Below are positions 1,641-47,366 of a stretch of DNA of 47,366 nt, piece after piece. A program made the position numbers and the translations under genes. The notes under the pieces are model-generated. The model made no database searches. It worked only from the letters and a program-made list of their open reading frames with translations, and was not told the DNA's origin. The stretch is from a virus. Lineage: Duplodnaviria; Heunggongvirae; Uroviricota; Caudoviricetes. Location of the stretch: the IMG/VR virus record IMGVR_UViG_2630968533_000004; one strand, given 5' to 3'. Numbering within the stretch: position 1 is the stretch's first letter; every line of letters begins with the position of its first letter.

Positions 1641-4112
1641 TTAAGAATCAGCCTGACTCGGGATCAGTTTTTGCCAGATAGCTGAAACGTATTTTGCCTG
1701 GTAACGGGCGTCATCAAGTGCATTATGGCGCTCACCTTCGAATGGAATAGCCGTTCTGGCATCGAAGTCTATGGCTTTCCCCAGCTCAACGATTGTGCGT
1801 ACATCGCGATCGTTGTAGTAACGCCACGGGCAGGGGATCCCCTGCCGTTCGTATGAACGGCGCAAAATCGTGTTGTCGAAGTTGGCTCCATTTCCCCAGA
1901 CATGAACAAAAAATTCACCGGAGTTTTCGTCGATAAATTCCCGCAATTGTAACAGTGCATCATCTAACGGGATTTCATCGGTCATAATGGCAGATTGCGC
2001 TTCGCGTGATTGTTTAAGCCACCATTTAATGGTGTCCCGATCAATGACTCCGCCAGCAGTTTCCAGATCGATAGTCTTACTAAATTCCGGTCCCATATCT
2101 CCGGTTTGCGGATCGAAAAATATTGCACCTATTGAGATAATCGGGGCATCGGGATTTTTTCCCATGGTTTCAAGGTCGATCATCAGATGAATCCCCGCTC
2201 TGCTGGTGGATGTGAGATTATGATGACCGTTCACCTTAATTAAGGGATCTGACGCCTCGCCAGTTTCACTATCGCTGGCATGATGCTGATTGCTGCCAGT
2301 GTTCTCCTTGTGCTGATGCGCAGTGCCTTCCATTTCCTCCAGATCATTTTTCTGAACTTCAGGCTGATTCTCTCCATCGAATATTTCCTGGTATGTTGCG
2401 TCACCCATCACCGCACCACAATCAGGGCAGTTGCCGCCACCGCTCTGACCGCAGGCGGTGCAGATCTTTTCCGGTTCCTGTTGCACTACTGGTTCAGGTT
2501 GTTTCGTTTCTGGCTCGTTTTGTTGCGTATTTGGGCTGTTTTGTTCCGCTTTCTGGTCGTTCTGTTCCGTTTCTTGCTGGTTCTGGTTCACAGAATCGCG
2601 GGTCTGGATCCCCTTAATCCATTTCGGATCATTCGGGTCGCTAATCCCTTCAACAAATTCACCACGTGATACTGCAAGCAGTTCATCGGCGTCAGGCTGG
2701 CTGATATTGGCTGCCTGCATAATTTTGTTTACTTCGTCAGCGGTAACTTTTACTGACCCTGGTTGTGCGGTCGTGTCAGATGCACCAGTATTTTGTTGTG
2801 AACCTGAGTATGTACCGTTTTTGCGGGCGAAATATTCTTCTTTCGTGATTTCAGTAGCCCCAGCAGACAGCGCCTTATCCAGACCAGAAAGTTTATTTGC
2901 GCGACCGTATTTTTCGCCATCCTTGTCGGTGAAGAGGAAGTAGAACGGCCCCTCACGTTCTACAGATGGTTCGACTTCCACTTTGCATTCGGTTTTTTCG
3001 TTGTCTGGAATTGCCGTTTCCACTGCATCAGTTTCTGGTACTGGCGACGAGAGAGTATCAGTTGCGCTCTGATTTGTTCCTTCATCTTCAAACACGCCCT
3101 TTGTAGTCAGGTATTCAGTAATGTATTTGTTCAGTGCCACAGGGTCTTTGTGAATGTCGATCGGACGTTCACGGACAAGGCCAAAAATAGTCTGGCGGTC
3201 GTAGCGAAGGGCATCAGGCTGTTTGCGCATTGATGCCGAGATACGCTTCCAGTCTTCGCGGTCGTTGTCGATAACTTCATTTTTTGCCCAGCGATGGATG
3301 CTGCCGTCAATGTTTCCGGCATCCACATCACCAGGCCAGAGAGCGTAGGCCAGTTCGTCATCCAGTGTTTTCCATGTCTGCTTGTATTCGCGATGAATGG
3401 CAGCAATGACCGGGTTGATTTTTCCTGTTGAATTTTCAGTGTGCTGTTGATTGGCTCTGGCGCGGGCGAGATCAACAACAGACGTGTATTTTCCGGCTTC
3501 CTTGCGTTCACCTTCGCGACGTTTTTTCCAGATGCGCATCTCTGCCTGAATTTCGGGCCATTTGGCACCAGGCTTACATTTATGCTTAACCCACCCGATG
3601 GCATGCAGCTTAAGCTCCGGATACATAGCGTTAACTTCTGGCATTTTCATCAACGCTTCAACGATATGGCCGTCGAATGTTGCCATGTCTTCCTGCAACA
3701 ATTCCTGTGCGCTAATCACCATATCAACAGTGATGTTTTCACATGTGTCGAACTTAACCATGACAGCGTTCTGTACTTCAGGGGCTAGGTTGTCAAAAGT
3801 GACGTTCATCGGATCGGATTCAGTCTCGACCGGGACAAAGGAAGCAGACGCCTCATCCCAGCGGTTTTCCTGCATATATTCAGCATCCCAGGAATCGAGG
3901 GCAGGGCGGGGTATACCGGGTTTATCCTCGCAAACAAGAAATTTATAAGCGCAGTCCTGAGCAGCCGGATAATGTTCCAGGAATTGCCAGTGAAATTTTG
4001 CGCGGGCGCGACGTTCATCACCGGCTTCAATGGCAGTGGCTACAGCGACGGCACCTTCTTCCTTTATTGCCTGTTCGTCCGGAATGGCGGCGCAAATAAA
4101 GACTTTACTCAT
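1641..4112 (-). CDS. Large exonuclease with C-terminal DnaQ-like (DEDDh) 3'-5' exonuclease domain
   Basis: 823-aa ORF; C-terminus carries MIDLETMG (Exo I), WGNGANFDNTIL (Exo II) and HNALDDARYQAKY (Exo III, H-x4-D) motifs; central CTACGQSGGGNCPDCG zinc-ribbon-like motif and Q/N/E-rich low-complexity linker. Confidence 0.75.
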   Translation of the reverse strand: MSKVFICAAIPDEQAIKEEGAVAVATAIEAGDERRARAKFHWQFLEHYPAAQDCAYKFLVCEDKPGIPRPALDSWDAEYMQENRWDEASASFVPVETESDPMNVTFDNLAPEVQNAVMVKFDTCENITVDMVISAQELLQEDMATFDGHIVEALMKMPEVNAMYPELKLHAIGWVKHKCKPGAKWPEIQAEMRIWKKRREGERKEAGKYTSVVDLARARANQQHTENSTGKINPVIAAIHREYKQTWKTLDDELAYALWPGDVDAGNIDGSIHRWAKNEVIDNDREDWKRISASMRKQPDALRYDRQTIFGLVRERPIDIHKDPVALNKYITEYLTTKGVFEDEGTNQSATDTLSSPVPETDAVETAIPDNEKTECKVEVEPSVEREGPFYFLFTDKDGEKYGRANKLSGLDKALSAGATEITKEEYFARKNGTYSGSQQNTGASDTTAQPGSVKVTADEVNKIMQAANISQPDADELLAVSRGEFVEGISDPNDPKWIKGIQTRDSVNQNQQETEQNDQKAEQNSPNTQQNEPETKQPEPVVQQEPEKICTACGQSGGGNCPDCGAVMGDATYQEIFDGENQPEVQKNDLEEMEGTAHQHKENTGSNQHHASDSETGEASDPLIKVNGHHNLTSTSRAGIHLMIDLETMGKNPDAPIISIGAIFFDPQTGDMGPEFSKTIDLETAGGVIDRDTIKWWLKQSREAQSAIMTDEIPLDDALLQLREFIDENSGEFFVHVWGNGANFDNTILRRSYERQGIPCPWRYYNDRDVRTIVELGKAIDFDARTAIPFEGERHNALDDARYQAKYVSAIWQKLIPSQADS

Positions 4113-5284: not shown

Positions 5285-5630
5285 GAACTTGCAGGACGTC
5301 ATGATCGTAACTTCCATCCAAACCGCGACGGCAAATTGCTTCTCGTATTACCGGAAGCAGTTCGCTGGAAATCTCGGTGCATATTTCACCTGATAATACG
5401 CCTGGCTCAAGTGAGAATATTGGTGAACTTACGGTCTTGGTCTCGACAGTTTCAGAGTCAGTGCCAACATTATAAAGCTCAACGAAAGCGGTCTTGATTT
5501 TCCGGGCCAGATCTTTTGCTGGCTCGCTTGCAATATCTTTCCCGATTTCTCGCAGCACAGAATGCAATGTATGAGCTGCTGTTTTCTGTACATCAGACGG
5601 TAAATCTTTAAATTCCATCGTCAGCCTCAT
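5253..5630 (-). CDS. Hypothetical early-left operon protein (possibly YdfB/YdfC-like)
   Basis: 125-aa ORF between ydfA-like gene and DicF on the operon strand; family assignment from position only. Confidence 0.45.
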   Translation of the reverse strand: MRLTMEFKDLPSDVQKTAAHTLHSVLREIGKDIASEPAKDLARKIKTAFVELYNVGTDSETVETKTVSSPIFSLEPGVLSGEICTEISSELLPVIREAICRRGLDGSYDHDVLQVLRTMVTSLGI

Positions 5631-5782
5631 CAGTCAGTGTTTCTGGCTAACCAGCAACGCGCGCCAGATTCGGTTTTAAACGTTTTGCTTTTGGTATATG
5701 TCATCGCGGTGAACGTACCGTCCTGGTTGGGGAACACGCCACATACCAGAGATTCGCTGTTGCCAAGATCGATAGTATCCAT
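5630..5782 (-). CDS. ydfA: YdfA-like small protein (50 aa)
   Basis: Internal Met of ORF 5630..5938 gives MDTIDLGNSESLVCGVFPNQDGTFTAMTYTKSKTFKTESGARCWLARNTD; first gene of the operon downstream of the dicA-proximal promoter region. Confidence 0.55.
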   Translation of the reverse strand: MDTIDLGNSESLVCGVFPNQDGTFTAMTYTKSKTFKTESGARCWLARNTD

Positions 5783-14241: not shown

Positions 14242-14317
14242 GGCCCTTTAGCTCAGTGGTGAGAGCGAGCGACTCATAATCGCCAGGTCGCTGGTTCAAA
14301 TCCAGCAAGGGCCACCA
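14242..14317 (+). tRNA. tRNA-Ile2 (anticodon CAU, lysidine type) or Met
   Basis: 76-nt cloverleaf folded by hand: acceptor GGCCCTT/AAGGGCC, D-stem GCTC/GAGC, anticodon loop CTCATAA, T-arm GCTGG-TTCAAAT-CCAGC, CCA end; close to recalled E. coli ileX. Confidence 0.85.
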
Positions 14318-14417
14318 TCACAAACCGCCATTAGCTTATCAGGAAGAGCAGACGACACGATAACAGGGTTGTTGGTGCGGGGGCGGGTCCCCGATGGCGG
14401 TCCATTATCGGTATTCA

Positions 14418-14494
14418 GCGTTGTTAGCTCAGCCGGACAGAGCAATTGCCTTCTAAGCAATCGGTCACTGGTTCGAATCCAGTACAGCGCGCCA
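14418..14494 (+). tRNA. tRNA-Arg (anticodon UCU)
   Basis: Acceptor GCGTTGT/ACAGCGC, anticodon stem ATTGC/GCAAT with loop CTTCTAA, T-loop GGTTCGAATCC, CCA end. Confidence 0.85.
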
Positions 14495-14604
14495 TATTCA
14501 TTCTTCCAGATTCCTTCCGGCAGAGCCTTATACTGGAATATACCTGGCTCAGGATATTGTTGAAAACATAATATGTTTGTCAAAAATAAAAGTTCTGTTA
14601 AGTA

Positions 14605-38600: not shown

Positions 38601-39162
38601 GGCATTTTCCCTGACACCGGACGGGCGGCTGACGGCGAAAAATGCCGATATCAGCGGTAACGTGAATGCGAACTCCGGGACGCTCAACAACGTCACGATT
38701 AACGAGAACTGCCGGGTTCTGGGAAAACTGTCCGCGAACCAGATTGAAGGCGATCTCGTTAAAACAGTGGGCAAAGCTTTCCCCCGGGACTCCCGTGCAC
38801 CGGAACGGTGGCCATCAGGGACCATTACCGTCAGGATTTATGACGATCAGCCGTTTGACCGGCAGATTGTTATTCCGGCGGTGGCATTCAGCGGCGCTAA
38901 ACATGAGAGAGAGCATACTGATATTTACTCCTCATGCCGTCTGATAGTGCGGAAAAACGGTGCTGAAATTTATAACCGTACCGCGCTGGATAATACGCTG
39001 ATTTACAGTGGCGTTATTGATATGCCTGCCGGTCACGGTCACATGACGCTGGAGTTTTCGGTGTCAGCATGGCTGGTAAATGACTGGTATCCCACAGCAA
39101 GTATCAGCGATTTGCTGGTTGTGGTGATGAAGAAAGCCACCGCAGGCATCAGTATCAGCTGA
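35683..39162 (+). CDS. Host specificity / central tail fibre protein (gpJ-like)
   Basis: 1159 aa, collinear with lambda J by size and position. Confidence 0.9.
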
Positions 39163-39181
39163 ATTTTATAACCCCAATACG

Positions 39182-39205
39182 GGCGTCAGAAATGACGCCT
39201 TTTTT
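39182..39205 (+). terminator. Rho-independent terminator after J
   Basis: GGCGTCAGAAATGACGCC hairpin then TTTTTT. Confidence 0.6.
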
Positions 39206-39229
39206 ATTGCAGAAAAGCGAGAGGTAATT

Positions 39230-39829
39230 ATGCGTAAATTATGTGCTGTTATTCTGTCCGCAGTAGTCTGGCTGGTTGCCGCTGGTACGCCAGCGAGCGC
39301 AGCAGAGCATCAGTCCACACTAAGCGCCGGGTATCTTCAGACCCATACTGATATGCCAGGCAGTGATGACCTGAAGGGCATTAACGTGAAATACCGTTAT
39401 GAATTTACGGACACGCTGGGGCTGGTGACGTCATTCAGTTATGCCAATGCCAAAGATGAGCAAAAAACGCATTACAGCGATACCCGCTGGCATGAAGATT
39501 CCGTGCGTAACCGCTGGTTCAGCATGATGGCGGGGCCATCTGTACGCGTGAATGAATGGTTCAGTGCTTATGCGATGGCGGGTATGGCTTACAGCCGTGT
39601 GTCGACCTTCTCCGGGGATTATCTCCGCGTAACTGACAACAAGGGGAAAACGCATGATGTGCTGACCGGAAGTGATGACGGTCGCCACAGCAACACGTCT
39701 CTGGCGTGGGGGGCTGGCGTGCAGTTTAACCCGACCGAATCCGTGGCCATTGACCTTGCTTATGAAGGTTCCGGCAGTGGTGACTGGCGCACTGACGGTT
39801 TCATCGTGGGTGTCGGTTATAAATTCTGA
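39230..39829 (+). CDS. lom: Lom-like outer membrane protein (Ail/Lom family)
   Basis: Signal peptide; beta-barrel pattern; C-terminus IDLAYEGSGSGDWRTDGFIVGVGYKF matches recalled lambda Lom. Confidence 0.85.
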   Translation: MRKLCAVILSAVVWLVAAGTPASAAEHQSTLSAGYLQTHTDMPGSDDLKGINVKYRYEFTDTLGLVTSFSYANAKDEQKTHYSDTRWHEDSVRNRWFSMMAGPSVRVNEWFSAYAMAGMAYSRVSTFSGDYLRVTDNKGKTHDVLTGSDDGRHSNTSLAWGAGVQFNPTESVAIDLAYEGSGSGDWRTDGFIVGVGYKF

Positions 39830-39855
39830 TTAGCCAGGTAACACAGTGTTATGAC

Positions 39856-39882
39856 AGCCCGCCGGTTCAGGCGGGCTTTTTT
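39856..39882 (+). terminator. Rho-independent terminator after lom
   Basis: AGCCCGCCGGTTCAGGCGGGCT hairpin then TTTTTT. Confidence 0.6.
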
Positions 39883-39887
39883 GTGGA

Positions 39888-42266
39888 GTGGATATGGCAG
39901 CAGTAAAAATCTCAGGTGTGCTGAAAGATGGTGCGGGAAAACCAATACAGAACTGCACTATTCAACTGAGGGCAAAGCGTAACAGCACCACGGTACTGGT
40001 GAACACGGTGGCTTCTGAAAATCCGGATGAAGCCGGACGTTACAGCATGGATGTTGAGTATGGCCAGTACAGCGTCACCCTGCTGGTTGAAGGTTTTCCG
40101 CCTTCACATGCCGGGACCATTACCGTCTATGAAGGCTCCAGACCAGGTACGCTGAATGATTTTCTCGGTGCCATGACGGAAGATGATGTCATGCCGGAGG
40201 CATTGCGTCGTTTTGAGGCAATGGTGGAAGAAGTGGCACGCAACGCCGAAGCCGCCTCTCAGAGCGCAGCGGCGGCAAAGAAATCCGAAACTGCAGCGGC
40301 ATCATCAAAGAACGCGGCGAAAACCTCAGAAACGAATGCAGCTAATAGTGCACAGGCGGCAGCGGCCTCACAGACTGCATCGGCAAACTCCGCGACAGCA
40401 GCCAAAAAATCAGAAACCAACGCGAAAAATAGCGAGACAGCCGCAAAGACGAGCGAAACCAACGCAAAGTCCAGCCAGACGGCAGCGAAAACCAGCGAAA
40501 CGAATGCCAAAGCCAGTGAAACTGCGGCAAAAAACAGCCAGGTTGCAGCAGCCCAAAGCGAGAGCGCGGCAGCCGGTTCTGCGACTTCAGCAGCCGGATC
40601 AGCAACTGCTGCGGCTAACAGCCAGAAAGCTGCGAAGACGAGTGAAACTAACGCAAAGTCCAGCCAGACGGCAGCGAAGACCAGCGAAACGAATGCCAAA
40701 GCCAGCGAAACTGCGGCGAAAAACAGCCAGGATGCAGCAGCCGAAAGCGAGAGTGTTGCAGCTGGTTCTGCAAGCGCGGCGGCTGCTTCTGCCACTGCAT
40801 CAGCTAACAGTCAAAAAGCAGCAAAAACCAGTGAAACCAACGCAAAGACAAGCGAGACTGCGGCAGCTAACTCGGCGAAAGCATCCGCTGCAAGCCAGAC
40901 AGCGGCTAAAGCAAGTGAAGATGCAGCCAGGGAGTACGCAAGCCAGGCAGCTGAGCCGTATAAACAAGTTTTGCAGCCACTGCCTGATGTGTGGATACCG
41001 TTTAATGACTCGATGGATATGATTGCAGGATTTGGCCCGGGATATAAAAAAATAACAGTGCGCGATGATGTGGTCACTATACCATCCGACAAAATTGTCC
41101 CGTTTTCCCGCGCGAGTTCCGCGACCTATATCAATAAGTCCGGCGCTCTTACCATTGCAGAAATTAATGAGCCACGTTTTGAAAAAGAAGGGCTGTTAAT
41201 TGAAGGGCAGAGAACTAACTATCTAAAAAATTCTAATACACCGGAATTGTGGTACTACCACAGTTTACTGGCGAAAGAGTATGGGGTTGATAATTACGGT
41301 TTTAATTATGCAACCGTCACCGTGACAGACAGTCTTGTAGGCACAACCAGTAGTTATCAGATTCATAGTGTAACTGGAGAGAACAGGTTTTCTCTGTCCA
41401 TCGGTGAAACCTGCACTTTTTCTGCCCGCTTTCGTGGAGTTAATTCACGTTGTCGCGTCCATATATCTCTTGTTATTGGCGAAAATGTTAAAACATCCGT
41501 TGATGTATGTCTGGAGCCAGATACAGGTGAGGTTAAGGCGTACGGTAATAAGGCGCTGGTGACATTCAGAACGGAAAAACAGGGGGACTGGTGTTACTTT
41601 GAAACAACATATACCGCCGCAGAGAATATTGACGAAGTGGTATGCGGTTTTTTTATAACCAATCCTGAAGATGGTGGTTTTTCTTCTGATTCGTCATTAA
41701 CAATGACTACGCCGCAAATTGAAAAAGGGCCATGCGCTTCATCGTTTATTATTTCCGGAAACACACCAACCACGCGCGCCAGTGATATGGTTATTTTTTC
41801 AACCAGAAATAACATAAGTTCTGTCCCTTTAAGCTGTCTTGTTGAAATACATAAAAATTGGGACTCTACGCCAAATCAGGCCCCACGAATTTTAACCACT
41901 ATTGGCGTGGCGACTAATGATGAACAACTGGTATTGGCTTTCAGGACGCCTACAAGTCCGGATGTAGAACCTTTACCTTATGTTCAGTTTGGAGTGAGAT
42001 CTGCATATCTTAGTCCATCTGTGAAGGCCGGGCGCAAAATGATTGCTGGTTTTGTCTGTAATAGCTCGACTGAATTTCGTTGCTGTTGTAATGGTTACCT
42101 GTCACCTGTTCAGACTTCGTCATGGAAGAATACCGGAGCTGCACATGAAATACGTATTGGGGGAACTTCTGCTGGAGGAGAACGTCACTTGTTTGGTCAC
42201 GTTCGTAACCTGAGAATATGGCATAAAGAATTAACTGATGCGCAAATGGGGGAGTCAGTAGAATGA
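39888..42266 (+). CDS. stf: Side tail fibre protein (Stf-like) with Ala/Ser/Thr-rich repeats and distinct C-terminal domain
   Basis: N-terminus AVKISGVLKDGAGKPIQNCTIQLRAKRNSTTV... is lambda-Stf-like; central SETNAK/AAKTSE repeats; C-terminal third is AT-richer with no lambda-like sequence. Confidence 0.85.
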   Translation: MDMAAVKISGVLKDGAGKPIQNCTIQLRAKRNSTTVLVNTVASENPDEAGRYSMDVEYGQYSVTLLVEGFPPSHAGTITVYEGSRPGTLNDFLGAMTEDDVMPEALRRFEAMVEEVARNAEAASQSAAAAKKSETAAASSKNAAKTSETNAANSAQAAAASQTASANSATAAKKSETNAKNSETAAKTSETNAKSSQTAAKTSETNAKASETAAKNSQVAAAQSESAAAGSATSAAGSATAAANSQKAAKTSETNAKSSQTAAKTSETNAKASETAAKNSQDAAAESESVAAGSASAAAASATASANSQKAAKTSETNAKTSETAAANSAKASAASQTAAKASEDAAREYASQAAEPYKQVLQPLPDVWIPFNDSMDMIAGFGPGYKKITVRDDVVTIPSDKIVPFSRASSATYINKSGALTIAEINEPRFEKEGLLIEGQRTNYLKNSNTPELWYYHSLLAKEYGVDNYGFNYATVTVTDSLVGTTSSYQIHSVTGENRFSLSIGETCTFSARFRGVNSRCRVHISLVIGENVKTSVDVCLEPDTGEVKAYGNKALVTFRTEKQGDWCYFETTYTAAENIDEVVCGFFITNPEDGGFSSDSSLTMTTPQIEKGPCASSFIISGNTPTTRASDMVIFSTRNNISSVPLSCLVEIHKNWDSTPNQAPRILTTIGVATNDEQLVLAFRTPTSPDVEPLPYVQFGVRSAYLSPSVKAGRKMIAGFVCNSSTEFRCCCNGYLSPVQTSSWKNTGAAHEIRIGGTSAGGERHLFGHVRNLRIWHKELTDAQMGESVE
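40440..40820. repeat. Tandem direct repeat (about 2 x 189 bp) inside stf
   Basis: Block starting near 40443 (gcaaagacgagcgaaaccaacgcaaagtccagccagacggcagcgaa...) recurs near 40632 with a few substitutions. Confidence 0.6.
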
Positions 42267-42541
42267 AAGATTTTACGCTGAAGTTTCGAGATCGGGAAGG
42301 CTATAAAGCATTCTTGAATGAAATTAATTGGGAAGATAATGAAGTATTGCAAGATCAACTCCTGATTGATGAAATTGGATTCGCTTTCGATGAAGTCGGC
42401 AGAAATGCCGACGACGAACCAATTTATCAACGACGCGACGGTTATTTTGTAAATATTAGAATCTTAGATGAAAAGCTGGACGCATCACCATTTACCGGAA
42501 ATGTAGTGATTCTTGATGCTCCTCTTCGTGAATGGGCTTGA
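42263..42541 (+). CDS. Hypothetical small acidic protein in tail-fibre locus
   Basis: 92-aa ORF; start overlaps stf stop; AT-rich. Confidence 0.45.
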   Translation: MKDFTLKFRDREGYKAFLNEINWEDNEVLQDQLLIDEIGFAFDEVGRNADDEPIYQRRDGYFVNIRILDEKLDASPFTGNVVILDAPLREWA

Positions 42542-42551
42542 GGGGTAATAT

Positions 42552-43592
42552 ATGGCGAACTTAACAGTAATTCCTGATGACATCAAAACGCTAAAATCCG
42601 ACGTTAGCAAATTAAAAAAAGATCAAGGAAGCTACGCAACAAAATCATATGTAGACAATAAAACAACATGGAATGGTTATTGCAATGTAATCTATGATCA
42701 AAAGACATTGCCGACCACTGGAACTATATTTAGCGGTAAGATTCACTTGTCAAATAAGACAGGAGAAACCGAAAACGCTTATGGTGAGATGTACACCAGA
42801 AAAAATATTGACGGTACAAAAGATACAATGACAAGGATTGTCACACACAATGGAACAAAAGGTATCTTTTGGGATTTTAGCGATCTTTACGGTGGAACAT
42901 TAATTTTTCCAGGCAGTGATGGTTACCTTAAGATGGGGAACTGTCTCATGTCGTATGGTGTGCGGGGAAGTAACGCGCTTATTAAGTTTGACTGCACAGA
43001 CACATTACAAATCAAATATGCTAATCATGGGTCAACCATGACAATAAACACACAAGGAACCGCTCACGCTGGCGTTACTGCTAGCTTGTGGGGCAACTCT
43101 AGCCGTCCGGTTGTATATGAAGTTGGTGCTGATGGTGGCGCGTATATGTTCTATGCGCAGAAACATACCGATAACACCTATATGTTAAGCGTTAATGGTG
43201 CATGTCATGCCACCGCATTTAACCAGCATTCCGACCGGGATCTGAAAGACAACATTCAGGTGATCGATAATGCAACCGACCGCATCCGTAAAATGAACGG
43301 CTATACATACACTCTTAAAGAAAATGGCATACCTTACGCTGGTGTTATCGCGCAAGAAGCACTAGAAGCAATCCCAGAAGTTGTAGGCTCTGCAATGAAA
43401 TATCAGGATGGTGGAAGCGGGTCGAAAGGTGAAGAAGGTGAACGTTATTACACAGTAGATTATTCTGGTGTTACTGGCTTGCTTGTTCAGGTAGCCAGAG
43501 AGTCAGACGACAGAATAACAGCACTGGAAGAAGAAAACGCAGAATTAAGACAAAGATTATCTGCAATTGAGGTGGCGCTTGCGTCTAAATAA
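42552..43592 (+). CDS. Tail fibre / tailspike-like protein with C-terminal intramolecular chaperone (peptidase S74) domain
   Basis: C-terminus SDRDLKDNIQVIDNATDRIRKMNGYTYTLKENGIPYAGVIAQEALEAIPEVV...YYTVDYSGVTGLLVQVARESDDRITALEEENAELRQRL fits the endosialidase-chaperone pattern. Confidence 0.7.
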   Translation: MANLTVIPDDIKTLKSDVSKLKKDQGSYATKSYVDNKTTWNGYCNVIYDQKTLPTTGTIFSGKIHLSNKTGETENAYGEMYTRKNIDGTKDTMTRIVTHNGTKGIFWDFSDLYGGTLIFPGSDGYLKMGNCLMSYGVRGSNALIKFDCTDTLQIKYANHGSTMTINTQGTAHAGVTASLWGNSSRPVVYEVGADGGAYMFYAQKHTDNTYMLSVNGACHATAFNQHSDRDLKDNIQVIDNATDRIRKMNGYTYTLKENGIPYAGVIAQEALEAIPEVVGSAMKYQDGGSGSKGEEGERYYTVDYSGVTGLLVQVARESDDRITALEEENAELRQRLSAIEVALASK

Positions 43593-43598
43593 TATTAA

Positions 43599-43619
43599 GG
43601 GGCCGAGCGCCCCGTTTTA
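43599..43619 (+). terminator. Hairpin + T-tract after fibre gene
   Basis: GGGGCCGAGCGCCCC then GTTTTATT. Confidence 0.5.
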
Positions 43620-43628
43620 TTGGGTGGG

Positions 43629-43928
43629 ATGAAAATGGATATAACACCTTTCCTTCATGCACTTTGTGCTGTGGCTGCGCAGGTACTGGTTGGCCTTTTT
43701 ACCGGAAACTGGGTTTACGGTGCGATAGCCGGTTGTACGTTCTTCATTGCGCGTGAACACACCCAGGCAGAATATCGCTGGATTGAAATGTTCGGGCATG
43801 GCAAGCGAATGAATATGCCGTGGTGGGGCGGTTTTGATCTACGCGCGTGGGATGTAGCAAGCCTGATGGATTTTGCTGTGCCGGTGGTGGCGTGTCTGCT
43901 GGTCTGGCTGTTGGTTAATCGTGTGTGA
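43629..43928 (+). CDS. Small membrane protein (two predicted TM helices)
   Basis: Hydrophobic segments ALCAVAAQVLVGLF and FAVPVVACLLVWLLV; start ambiguous (TTG 43620, ATG 43629 or 43635). Confidence 0.5.
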   Translation: MKMDITPFLHALCAVAAQVLVGLFTGNWVYGAIAGCTFFIAREHTQAEYRWIEMFGHGKRMNMPWWGGFDLRAWDVASLMDFAVPVVACLLVWLLVNRV

Positions 43929-44155
43929 AAAAAGGTGAGCTGTATATGCAACGGAGGAAGAAACCCCGTTGCTGGAAGCATGGAAAAAGTATCGGGTATT
44001 GCTGAACCGTGTTGATACGTCAACTGCACAGGATATTGAATGGCCAGCACTGCCGTAGGGTAAAACATATAAATTCTATAATTAGATGTATCTTTCCATT
44101 TACGGCAAGGAAGGGGGCTTGGAAGACGTAAAGCATCTCACACCGAGATTATTTT

Positions 44156-44746
44156 TTATATGTCAGGTGTCTGAAGTTTTGCTTTGGCTCTTAAAATGGT
44201 TTGCCGCGAGGTTTTGAATTCCCGGGCAATGGCACTTATACTTACACCTGACTTAATTCGTTCGAATACCACCTGTTTCTGTTCTTCATTTAACACAGGT
44301 GGTCGACCAAAACGTTTCCCTGCGCCGCGGGCTCTTACTATCCCGGAATGAGTGCGTTCAAGTAAAAGGTCTCGTTCAAATTCAGCGACTGCTGAAATTA
44401 CTTGCATCATCATTTTTCCTGTTGGACTGGTCAGGTCAATGCCACCCAATGCTAAGCAATGCACTCTGATACCTGTTTCGGTCAGTTGTTCCACTGTTTT
44501 CCTGATATCCATTGCATTACAACCAAGGCGATCCAGTTTTGTCACAATCAATTGATCACCACATTTCAGGCGAGCAAGCAACCGGTTAAAACCAGGACGC
44601 TCACTGGTTGCTGCTGAGCCGCTAATGTGTTCTTCGATTATTTGCTGAGGTTTGATTTTAAAACCTGCACTTTCGATTTCCCGGCGTTGATTTTCGGTGG
44701 TCTGATCCAGCGTTGATATCCGACAGTAAGCAAAAATTCGAGACAT
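44156..44746 (-). CDS. pin: Serine recombinase, DNA invertase (Pin/Gin/Hin family)
   Basis: 196 aa; N-terminal catalytic region [16 protein letters not shown] (Ser nucleophile) and C-terminal HTH; matches Pin-family invertases. Confidence 0.9.
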
Positions 44747-45062
44747 AGTGAGACTCTATACGAAATTGGTGTTCATATCATAATGCATCTCAGAAAATAA
44801 TTATGATTATTTTTGTGCATATTTGTATGTACACGTTCGAAAATAAACGAATGCGTATGCAACCCCGTAATTTTGGTGAGACCCAAAATCGATTTTGTGA
44901 AAAAAGGCTTTAACTCGGTTTGTTTTTCGAGTTCCGGGCGGACTCAAGGAAGAAGAATAGTGTTGCGTGTTATTTTAACCAGATTTCAAGTTGTTTGGTC
45001 GTGGAAAAGTGGAGCAAAATGTTGTTAAAGTGGAAAAATGATAAAAAAGTAAGTTTATTATA

Positions 45063-45296
45063 TTACATTTTACCATTTAAATTTTGGTTGTCTTTAAGAA
45101 CTGATATCGCTGTTTGTAATAATTCTTTGTTATCCAGCCATGATTTTTTCTTTATGTTTCCTTCAATGTAATCAAGCAATGTTCTGGTATTGATAGGTCT
45201 TCCCTGTTTTGCTACTTCCACTACAGCATCCCCTAGGATAATTCTTACTTCAGGAAGCTGCGCAGGGAACCACTTTAGGGTGTCTTTTGATTTCAT
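45063..45296 (-). CDS. YdfK/YnaE-like small prophage protein
   Basis: Internal Met gives 77 aa MKSKDTLKWFPAQLPEVRIILGDAVV...; position next to pin as in Qin. Confidence 0.5.
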   Translation of the reverse strand: MKSKDTLKWFPAQLPEVRIILGDAVVEVAKQGRPINTRTLLDYIEGNIKKKSWLDNKELLQTAISVLKDNQNLNGKM

Positions 45297-46082
45297 GAAG
45301 ATATTCCTTAAAATATTATTGATTTTCATTGCGATATTGTATGTCTGATTCAGGATATGTTGACTTATACATCGGTTTTGTCTGGGTTATTGGATATGCC
45401 AATCCCTAATTTTATTAGGGCATGACTAAAAATGCTGAATATGATAAGGAGAGATGTGATTATCAGTATGCTGTTCATATAGCCTCGAATTAGTAATGTG
45501 TTATATATGATATAGTTGACAATTTTTATCTTGGGTGTTCTTAAAGTTCGTAGATAAACATTGTCGTTTCAGGTATACAGGAATGCTAACAGGTGGCAGC
45601 AAAAATCAGGCGGTTTATGGCGCAAGCTGAAGCGGCAACTGTAAACTATCTTATGCAGAGACTCTACACGGATTGGGTTTAAAAGTATACATAGATAACA
45701 GTTTTTATCTGAAAAAGAAAAATATCAAGGTGATATAGCCTATATGCCTTTGATGCGGAGGAATGAATGTGATGGGAGTGATGTATCTGAATAGTTGAAA
45801 AACCGCAGACACGCCTTATGCAAGAACGTGCTGCGGTTGGCTGGTAAATTTTTCGATAGTGTGAGTATTGAATGATTTCCAGCCGTTCTTGATTTTACGC
45901 ATAAATCCATGAAAAAACTACTTATCTGTTGGGGAGTTTTTTTTGGGGCATATATGGGACAGAAATAGGCCCCAGATAGACACTGAGATCGAACTTAGGA
46001 TGCTTTTTAAAAAATGCAACTATCTGAAAAAACCTAGAAAACGCCAAGGAAACCACAGGATGGGAAAAAACACCTGTGAATT

Positions 46083-47366
46083 ATGGATTTCCAGTTATAT
46101 TCGCTCGGCGCAGCGTTAGTGTTTCATGAAATATTTTTTCCTGAATCATCAACGGCAATGGCGTTAATTCTGGCAATGGGAACCTACGGTGCAGGTTATG
46201 TGGCGCGTATTGTCGGAGCATTTATTTTCGGCAAAATGGGCGACAGAATAGGGCGTAAAAAAGTACTCTTTATTACCATCACCATGATGGGGATCTGTAC
46301 CACCTTAATTGGTGTGTTACCGACCTATGCACAGATTGGTGTTTTTGCACCCATCTTGCTGGTGACGCTGCGTATTATTCAGGGATTGGGTGCAGGTGCG
46401 GAAATTTCCGGTGCCGGTACGATGCTGGCGGAATATGCGCCAAAAGGTAAGCGCGGAATTATCTCCTCATTTGTTGCTATGGGGACTAACTGCGGAACCT
46501 TGAGCGCAACGGCAATCTGGGCCTTTATGTTCTTCATTCTCAGTAAAGAGGAACTGTTGGCGTGGGGATGGCGTATACCGTTCCTGGCGAGCGTTGTCGT
46601 GATGGTCTTTGCTATCTGGTTGCGTATGAATCTGAAAGAAAGCCCGGTCTTTGAGAAGGTTAACGACAGCAATCAACCGACAGCAAAACCTGCACCTGCT
46701 GGTAGCATGTTCCAGAGCAAATCCTTCTGGCTGGCAACAGGGCTGCGTTTTGGTCAGGCTGGTAACTCAGGTTTAATTCAGACTTTCCTTGCAGGCTATT
46801 TAGTGCAGACGTTATTGTTTAACAAAGCAATTCCAACAGATGCATTGATGATCAGTTCGATTCTCGGCTTTATGACCATTCCGTTCCTTGGTTGGTTATC
46901 CGATAAAATAGGTCGCCGGATCCCGTATATTATTATGAATACCTCTGCGATTGTGCTGGCGTGGCCAATGCTTTCTATCATCGTAGATAAAAGCTATGCC
47001 CCGAGCACCATTATGGTTGCACTGATTGTGATTCATAACTGTGCGGTGCTGGGATTATTTGCTCTGGAAAACATTACCATGGCAGAAATGTTCGGCTGTA
47101 AAAACCGCTTTACCCGGATGGCTATTTCTAAAGAAATTGGTGGTCTTATCGCTTCCGGTTTTGGTCCTATCCTGGCGGGTATTTTCTGCACCATGACGGA
47201 ATCCTGGTATCCGATCGCCATTATGATCATGGCATATTCAGTGATTGGTTTAATCTCTGCGCTGAAAATGCCAGAAGTGAAAGACCGTGATTTAAGTGCA
47301 CTGGAAGATGCCGCGGAAGATCAACCGCGTGTTGTAACAGCAGCGCAACCTTCAAGAAGTCTGTAA
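46083..47366 (+). CDS. ydfJ: MFS transporter (metabolite:H+ symporter family), host gene at prophage boundary
   Basis: 427 aa, multiple TM helices, MFS motif GKMGDRIGRKK; N-terminus begins inside the conserved first-helix region, so the gene appears 5'-truncated; an upstream out-of-frame MGKNTCELWISSYIRSAQR* reading suggests disruption. Confidence 0.8.
   Translation: MDFQLYSLGAALVFHEIFFPESSTAMALILAMGTYGAGYVARIVGAFIFGKMGDRIGRKKVLFITITMMGICTTLIGVLPTYAQIGVFAPILLVTLRIIQGLGAGAEISGAGTMLAEYAPKGKRGIISSFVAMGTNCGTLSATAIWAFMFFILSKEELLAWGWRIPFLASVVVMVFAIWLRMNLKESPVFEKVNDSNQPTAKPAPAGSMFQSKSFWLATGLRFGQAGNSGLIQTFLAGYLVQTLLFNKAIPTDALMISSILGFMTIPFLGWLSDKIGRRIPYIIMNTSAIVLAWPMLSIIVDKSYAPSTIMVALIVIHNCAVLGLFALENITMAEMFGCKNRFTRMAISKEIGGLIASGFGPILAGIFCTMTESWYPIAIMIMAYSVIGLISALKMPEVKDRDLSALEDAAEDQPRVVTAAQPSRSL

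Follow-up and report, generated by a model that had tools for sequence, protein, structure and literature searches.

The recombinase gene and its immediate surroundings

The DNA analyzed in this work, which we call the window, is the whole 47,366-nucleotide stretch of the Caudoviricetes record IMGVR_UViG_2630968533_000004, and the subject of the analysis is a small serine recombinase gene that lies next to the tail fibre genes of this virus and that an earlier sequence-only reading had described as a Pin-family DNA invertase with no recognisable invertible segment. The gene and the features that bear most directly on its origin are the following:

44156 to 44746, minus strand: pinQ/pinR-type small serine recombinase gene, 196 amino acids, identified from its open reading frame (ORF), Pfam, identity to the K-12 proteins and transposon homology
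44519 to 44521, minus strand: codon 76 of this gene, TGT (Cys), aligned with the Arg that serves in catalysis in Tn3/gamma-delta resolvase (R71); the transposon copies have CGT
44110 to 44147 (approximate), no strand assigned: decayed terminal inverted repeat of 38 bp, directly past the stop codon of the recombinase gene, aligning with both terminal repeats of the transposon
44747 to about 44864, no strand assigned: decayed res region, with remnants of three resolvase-binding subsites and of the tnpR promoter region, homologous to the 160-bp tnpR-tnpA intergenic region of the transposon

The ORF is intact and matches the Pfam families Resolvase (E 2.5e-36) and HTH_7 (E 3.8e-11). Judged by its sequence, the recombinase is an already known PinQ/PinR allele of the Rac/Qin-type lambdoid phages and prophages: amino acid identity to the proteins of Escherichia coli K-12 is 100% for PinR, 99% for PinQ and 39% for PinE, encoded in e14, and the invertases of P1, D6, HK225 and P88-type phages are 35-39% identical to it. 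Searches with phmmer recovered both Gin (E 2.7e-29) and gamma-delta resolvase (E 2.4e-22), from which we take the protein to be distant from both, and none of the NCBIfam family models reached its cutoff, the highest being the Mpi invertase with 85 bits against a cutoff of 272. Invertases of the Din family are about 60-70% identical to one another. The window protein resembles the members PinE, Gin, Cin and Hin in its small serine recombinase fold, its C-terminal helix-turn-helix, its location beside tail fibre genes and the relatedness of the half-sites, yet its identity to them is only about 36-39%, below the level found within the family, its recognition helix reads RQTILR instead of the STLYK of PinE and Gin, and, unlike e14 pinE, the gene turns its 3' end and not its 5' end toward the fibre genes.

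Over its entire length the window matches part of the chromosome of E. coli strain 1428 with 99.985% identity, and there the RefSeq annotation made with the Prokaryotic Genome Annotation Pipeline (PGAP) places pinQ at the equivalent coordinates. The gene is widespread, being present with at least 80% query coverage in 2749 of 5426 complete E. coli genomes, and 2586 of the 2994 matching records show identities of at least 99%. The ratio of nonsynonymous to synonymous substitution rates (dN/dS) was 0.16 against the transposon tnpR described below and 0.35 between the two prophage alleles, which are separated by a dS of 0.22 and both retain the reading frame and all the other catalytic residues. 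Because of these low ratios, and because the gene is intact in about half of the complete E. coli genomes and in isolated phages, the ORF appears to be under purifying selection and to have been retained by it.

Relationship to the resolvases of a Tn3-family transposon

The closest relatives of the window recombinase are tnpR resolvases, with identities of 77-85%. Searching E. coli genomes with the gene yielded copies on plasmids that are about 83% identical to it. On plasmid NZ_CP182384 the homologue, with 196 amino acids and 83% identity, is transcribed divergently from a Tn3-family transposase across an intergenic region of 160 bp. An intact element was found on the E. coli IncFIA plasmid pSJ7-2: it is 3815 bp long, ends in terminal inverted repeats of 52 nucleotides, has a TATAC target duplication on both sides and encodes a TnpR of 196 amino acids and a transposase of 994 amino acids with DUF4158 and DDE_Tnp_Tn3 domains, in the order terminal repeat, tnpR, 160-bp res, tnpA, terminal repeat. 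TnpR of this transposon shares 83% of its amino acids with the window recombinase, a value taken from the copies at loci L012 and L013. The transposon is present at 80% query coverage or more in at least 169 plasmids. No usable match for its name was found in the literature searched with the terminal-repeat sequence and with the names ISSba14, Tn5403 and ISEc63.

The arrangement of tnpR, 160-bp region and tnpA is repeated in homologue clusters of Shewanella, of Klebsiella and of a Hafnia type whose proteins are 78-80% identical to the window recombinase, and a full or truncated tnpA adjoins the homologue at 11 of the 12 places in these three further lineages. The plasmid element and these lineages together lead us to conclude that the nearest relatives of PinQ and PinR are the resolvases of an active group of Tn3-family transposons and not fibre invertases, the resolvases of Tn3 and gamma-delta being more distant relatives than TnpR of the pSJ7-2 type. 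The likeness to this TnpR extends to the length of 196 amino acids, to a near-identical recognition helix (TSRQTILR versus TTRQTILR) and to homology that continues beyond the gene into terminal repeat and res. The window differs from the transposon in having no tnpA, a single and decayed terminal repeat, decayed res subsites and a Cys in place of the Arg equivalent to R71. The label of Pin-family invertase is hence misleading, since identity to PinE is no more than 39%, Gin is similarly distant and the nearest relatives are tnpR resolvases.

Three observations were made on the transposon group itself. In one genome of Shewanella baltica the tnpA-tnpR element, whose resolvase is 79% identical, is found three times, twice in the chromosome and once on a plasmid (L016, L017 and L018), which indicates a currently mobile transposon. 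In Klebsiella and related bacteria (L022, L023 and L027) the resolvase is followed by passenger genes, namely an NmrA-like gene, a LysR regulator and two aldo-keto reductases, so that the family also exists in cargo-carrying forms. Finally, several public proteins of 196 amino acids (P0004-P0008) are chimeric, with about 80-170 N-terminal residues of the plasmid transposon TnpR, including Arg76, and the C-terminus of PinQ/PinR; they are either real recombinants between plasmid transposon and prophage or assembly chimeras on short contigs.

Remnants of the transposon around the gene

Comparison of the transposon with the window by blastn gave one match of 688 nucleotides (44117-44802, 83.3% identity), which begins inside the tnpR-side terminal repeat and ends within res, 56 nucleotides upstream of the start codon; the tnpA-side terminal repeat matches the same stretch of the window in reverse. 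In the relic repeat 25 of 38 positions agree with the transposon, by manual count on the alignment, and 23 of the 31 inner positions do so. Its local alignment reached a score of 33 against a mean of 13.5 for shuffled sequences, and that of the relic res a score of 67 against a mean of 16.4; in neither case did any of 2000 shuffles attain the observed score. Neither blastn nor tblastn gave any trace of a tnpA remnant in the window.

The classical res of Tn3 and gamma-delta contains three subsites. The res of the transposon agrees with this architecture, with five TGTCCGAAA half-sites, each with at most one mismatch, that form a 26-bp dyad, a 32-bp dyad and a tnpR-proximal site (an example of a subsite is TGACCGAAAACGACCGGTTTCGGACA), and this pattern is conserved across four transposon lineages. 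At the same tolerance TGTCCGAAA has 11 matches in the entire 47-kb window, both strands included. In the relic res every half-site departs from the 9-bp TGTCCGAAA core by two mismatches and no dyad is left, nor was any res-like dyad found elsewhere in the window. With its res decayed and no such dyad within the window, the recombinase is therefore left without a cognate substrate in cis, and in this sense the sequence-only reading was right in suggesting an orphan.

No earlier statement that PinR or PinQ derives from Tn3-type elements was found in the literature searched. Papers that contain both Tn3 and PinR/PinQ terms are, as far as their titles and abstracts tell, studies of antimicrobial resistance and plasmid genomics, and the 2025 paper on PinQ does not mention Tn3 (PMC12529663).

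Search for crossover sites and inversion at the fibre locus

The fibre locus to the left of the recombinase gene and the gene on its other side comprise:

39888 to 43928, plus strand: fibre cassette as a whole (ORFs, Pfam, PGAP), common to phages Tritos and HannyBb beside the same recombinase
39888 to 42266, plus strand: stf-like protein with prophage tail fibre N-terminal domain (ORF, Pfam, PGAP)
42263 to 42541, plus strand: ORF of 92 amino acids
42552 to 43592, plus strand: fibre protein of 346 amino acids with a Peptidase_S74 chaperone domain (ORF, Pfam)
43620 to 43928, plus strand: ORF of about 100 amino acids
43948 to 44058, plus strand: 111-bp remnant of the 3' end of tfa, annotated by PGAP as tail fiber assembly protein, missing N-terminus
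45063 to 45296, minus strand: ydfK/ynaE-type cold-shock gene (PGAP), always next to the recombinase module in Rac, Qin and the related phages

Every fibre-related ORF lies on the plus strand and there are no alternative fibre ends facing in the opposite direction, so that on the intact recombinase, the orientation of its neighbours and the lack of a recognisable invertible segment the ORF, Pfam, PGAP and repeat searches bear out the sequence-only reading. The inverted-repeat and 26-bp site search that it had proposed was also carried out. Over 39000-46200 the inverted repeats have arms of only 20-30 nucleotides with 70-82% complementarity, apart from one exact 16-mer, and we judged them, without a shuffle control, to be at chance level. 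The invertase core AAACCNNGGTTT with up to two mismatches gave 24 matches where 23.9 were expected, none of them usefully placed, and the full 26-bp Din consensus TTCNNNNAAACCNNGGTTTNNNNGAA with up to three mismatches gave none across the whole 47-kb window. These negative results are meaningful because the same tools recover both e14 pix sites of K-12, the consensus search at positions 3779-3804 and 5606-5631 of locus L002 and the repeat finder as a pair of 21 nucleotides, 95% complementary and 1797 nucleotides apart. The stretch 39800-46100 was collinear, as a single place, in 84 complete E. coli genomes (the 30 matches listed are single pieces of 100% identity), with no inverted isomer among them, and the fibre cassette occurs at 99% identity or more in exactly 84 records. 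The adjacent fibre genes are not inverted at present, and nothing suggests an inversion in the past.

A 20-nucleotide inverted repeat of 80% complementarity, with arms at 44309-44328 in the recombinase gene and 45257-45276 in ydfK, was judged to be chance; it recurs in Rac and Qin only through conservation of the module. At the locus of a 61%-identical homologue in Erwinia phage LS-2018a, convincing inverted repeats or a fibre inversion module were likewise not found.

Comparison with the pin regions of K-12, also proposed in the earlier reading, showed the same layout in Rac and Qin, with stf, tfa, spacer, recombinase and ynaE/ydfK in this order and no crossover-type inverted repeats, and a pix pair in e14. 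The resemblance of the window to the PinR (Rac) and PinQ (Qin) loci includes the 3' end of tfa, a spacer of 97 bp, a recombinase convergent with tfa, ydfK/ynaE and ynfT/ynaM, and with Qin the window shares the chromosomal site (ydfJ). The window prophage differs from both in looking complete and not cryptic, and in having most of tfa and the distal part of stf replaced by another fibre cassette, with 111 bp of tfa left. Homology to Rac, Qin, mEp460 and Kati begins abruptly at about 43947, inside the conserved 3' end of tfa, and from there through the recombinase stop codon the identity is 100%, which points to a different distal fibre cassette having been swapped in upstream of a constant module of tfa 3' end, recombinase and ydfK. 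The replacing cassette (C-terminal part of stf, 92-amino-acid ORF, S74 fibre and ORF of about 100 amino acids) is also present in Tritos and HannyBb. In phages mEp460_ev081, 2H10, Tritos, Kati, PhiR68_2 and HannyBb, the protein encoded between the fibre genes and int/att is identical or 99% identical to that of the window, all fibre ORFs have one orientation and there is no second, inverted set, and among the phages and prophages compared different fibre cassettes adjoin the identical recombinase gene.

Replacement of an active-site residue

Examination of the catalytic positions showed that the window protein has KLDRLGC where Gin, gamma-delta and Tn3 resolvases, PinE, the transposon TnpR and the Erwinia homologue have KLDRLGR. 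The position equivalent to Cys76 is an Arg in 112 of the 120 best homologue clusters, and among these 120 a Cys was seen in prophage lineages only, namely in the PinQ/PinR cluster and in an 85%-identical allele that is likewise located at the Qin site. The remaining key residues Y7, R9, S11 and R73 are present, and the position of Tn3 D36 is occupied by Glu, as in the transposon copies, so that the catalytic set of Tn3 resolvase (Y6, R8, S10, D36, R68 and R71; PMC2794168) is incomplete in the window protein. In Tn3 resolvase the replacements R71A and R71K abolish recombination and reduce the cleavage rate at least 1000-fold (PMC2794168). The sequence change to Cys76 thus argues against efficient catalysis by PinQ and PinR.

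Reported action in trans on the e14 P segment

Kirigo et al. (Nucleic Acids Research 2025) reported that PinQ, or equivalently PinR, inverts in trans the 1797-bp P segment of e14, located between stfP and stfE, and that the inversion yields a chimeric StfE2 which blocks T2 adsorption, resistance to T2 requiring stfP, stfE and e14 (PMC12529663). According to the same study, 33% of the e14 P segments in deposited genomes are inverted, inversions being found only in e14 and not in Rac or Qin, and a pinE mutant is locked in one orientation (PMC12529663). This locking fits a requirement for PinE, or for enhancer DNA inside pinE, even when PinQ is present. A term search of the main text of that paper returned no catalytic-dead PinQ control, and this together with the locked mutant leads us to consider that PinE may be the catalyst and PinQ a modulator.

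Regarding the binding sites, TGTCCGAAACC, the half-site of the transposon res, and TCTCCCAAACC, that of pix, agree at all but 2 of 11 positions, as read by eye, and the outer half of pixL is TCTCGAAAACC; the similarity between res and pix half-sites makes binding of PinQ and PinR to Din sites plausible. In the cognate site nearest tnpA, by manual count, the half-site cores are 2 bp further apart than in the 26-bp Din site.

The pinE type is present with at least 80% query coverage in 1263 genomes, and 2961 show any match, but the marginal counts for pinE (1263) and pinQ/R (2749) set no bound on how often the two occur together. Co-occurrence with e14 was therefore assessed indirectly, from the number of places matched per record when e14 pixR and pinE were included in the query and when they were not. 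In 54 of the 60 chromosomes with the exact fibre cassette, strain 1428 among them, the inclusion added no megablast place, and the other six gained one. Within the sensitivity of megablast, which in this test misses Din-type loci below about 80% nucleotide identity, and for chromosomes only, since plasmids are separate records, the e14 target is thus absent from most hosts of the cassette. The suggestion of the sequence-only reading that the recombinase acts in trans accordingly holds to the extent that such action has been published for the identical K-12 proteins (PMC12529663); as a general role in the present setting e14 inversion is not sustained, because most of the cassette chromosomes show no e14-type pinE and pixR.

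Origin and present role of the recombinase

Taking these results together, we consider it probable that the window recombinase, a known PinQ/PinR allele, is the tnpR resolvase left behind by a Tn3-family transposon, and that it has no fibre switch for this reason. TnpR proteins of this family bind the dyad subsites of res, resolve cointegrates and repress tnpA and tnpR. In the scenario that we propose, an ancestral phage would have received a small Tn3-family transposon immediately downstream of tfa, the phage lineage would then have lost tnpA and the far terminal repeat, the near repeat and res would have decayed, and the active-site Arg would have changed to Cys. Such losses would leave no recombination substrate in cis, and with this descent no invertible fibre segment need ever have existed at the locus. 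Today the protein would most likely bind DNA site-specifically and carry out only weak strand exchange on its own, or none; any action would be in trans, with related res sites of transposons entering the cell, or Din-type sites with similar half-sites, as targets. The protein identities, the transposon homology, the relic end and relic res, the lack of crossover sites, the collinearity of the 84 genomes and the Arg-to-Cys change are observed in the sequences; the retention by selection and the present role are inferred.

Several points weigh against this account. On overproduction of PinQ the inverted share of the e14 P segment is reported to climb from about 30% to 88%, and to fall when pinQ is deleted (PMC12529663), which implies real invertase activity despite Cys76; and the R71 mutants of Tn3 resolvase were described as 'not inert' (PMC2794168), so that some activity is possible in the presence of this change. 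On the side of the transposon remnants, the relic terminal repeat shows poor conservation at its outermost bases, and the other end of the transposon, with which a target duplication would have to be matched, is gone. Moreover, an empty site, in which tfa would be joined directly to ydfK, was not found in the phage collection with a query made by joining the sequence left of the relic repeat to that right of the relic res: in each of the 11 phages that have both flanks of the module the site is occupied, with spans of 1383-1446 nucleotides, and in other lambdoid phages the homology ends at the tfa stop codon.

Extending the derivation from a resolvase, we tentatively suggest, as a reading that falls short of being probable, that PinQ/PinR may be a domesticated and catalytically attenuated transposon resolvase that lambdoid phages keep as a sequence-specific DNA-binding factor and not as an invertase working on its own. 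One route could lead through the res sites of related Tn3-family transposons that enter the cell, a group common on E. coli IncF plasmids; by binding these sites the protein could repress or resolve the transposons. The other could lead through Din-type crossover sites, where the protein, by occupying them or by co-assembly, would bias switches catalysed by PinE-type enzymes; were the second route true, the published defence mechanism in which PinQ inverts e14 would be re-interpreted. A catalytic role in trans, with the protein flipping Din-type segments elsewhere, such as the P segment between stfP and stfE, to make chimeric fibres that block phage adsorption, seems unlikely to us. The overproduction result speaks for it, the window protein being identical to PinR, as does the similarity of TGTCCGAAACC to TCTCCCAAACC and to the pixL outer half, but it has to be reconciled with the Cys at the catalytic position, with the locked pinE mutant and the catalytic-dead control that the term search of that main text did not return, with the wider spacing of the half-site cores nearest tnpA, with the 54 of 60 cassette chromosomes that gain no e14 place, and with a gene that is equally conserved in free phages.

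Equally doubtful is that the gene is a functionless relic, not yet decayed, which is carried along with the tfa-ydfK region. The disappearance or decay of tnpA and res and the loss of a key catalytic residue are what such a relic would show, and dN/dS between the two prophage alleles exceeds that against the transposon copy; the 0.35 between alleles is nevertheless well below 1, these alleles keep the frame and the other catalytic residues over a dS of 0.22, the full-length ORF hardly varies among thousands of genomes and the isolated phages, and phenotypes of knockout and overexpression have been published (PMC12529663). A fibre invertase acting in cis through unrecognisably diverged crossover sites flanking part of 39.8-44.2 kb is close to refuted. 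Only the position of the gene beside fibre genes and the historical name Pin favour it. The negative repeat, core-motif and full-consensus searches, backed by the recovery of the pix sites, speak against the earlier suggestion that the sites are too diverged to be seen; there is no res-like dyad and there are no opposite-facing fibre ends, the identical gene stands beside different fibre cassettes, and all 84 genomes are collinear where a third of the e14 P segments, 33%, are inverted (PMC12529663). The premise behind that suggestion, an invertase of the Pin/Gin/Cin type flanking alternative fibre ends, is not supported either, given the 39% identity to PinE, the tnpR relatives, the relic transposon end and res, and also the isolated lambdoid phages, which show the stf-tfa-pin layout without a second fibre set.

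The orphan state in itself is not new, being normal in K-12 Rac, in Qin and in related isolated phages, and it is discussed in the 2025 paper (PMC12529663). Our modest addition, which we did not find in the literature searched, is the Tn3-family fossil with its relic terminal repeat and relic res; its origin explains the missing fibre switch and speaks against an automatic label in wide use, "DNA invertase from lambdoid prophage Rac". The second addition, also not found in that literature, is the Cys that the prophage alleles alone have where Tn3 resolvase needs an Arg for catalysis; it is of direct relevance to the claim that the e14 P segment is flipped by PinQ. As about half of the complete E. 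coli genomes carry the gene, its real function is of some general interest.

Other features of the prophage

In strain 1428 the counterpart of the window contains, from left to right, integrase, excisionase, head and tail genes, J, lom, fibre genes, pinQ, ydfK and ynfT, and the prophage is integrated in ydfJ, the Qin site of K-12. It is a complete-looking lambdoid prophage, unlike the cryptic Qin of K-12. The annotation of this strain places two prophage-borne tRNA genes (Ile and Arg) at about 14243-14495, directly downstream of the antiterminator gene, and homologues of hokD, dicB, cspI, gnsB and rem are also annotated in the prophage.

Within the fibre cassette, the ORF of about 100 amino acids at 43620-43928 has no match in Pfam or NCBIfam, contains hydrophobic stretches and travels with the cassette in Tritos and HannyBb; its sequence is suggestive of a small membrane protein. 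The central part of the stf-like gene (40250-40930) is rich in Ala, Ser and Thr and contains long near-duplicate blocks, in which ...AAKTSETNAKSSQTAAKTSETNAKASETAAKNSQ...AAGSA... occurs twice, a pattern that suggests repeat expansion in the fibre shaft.

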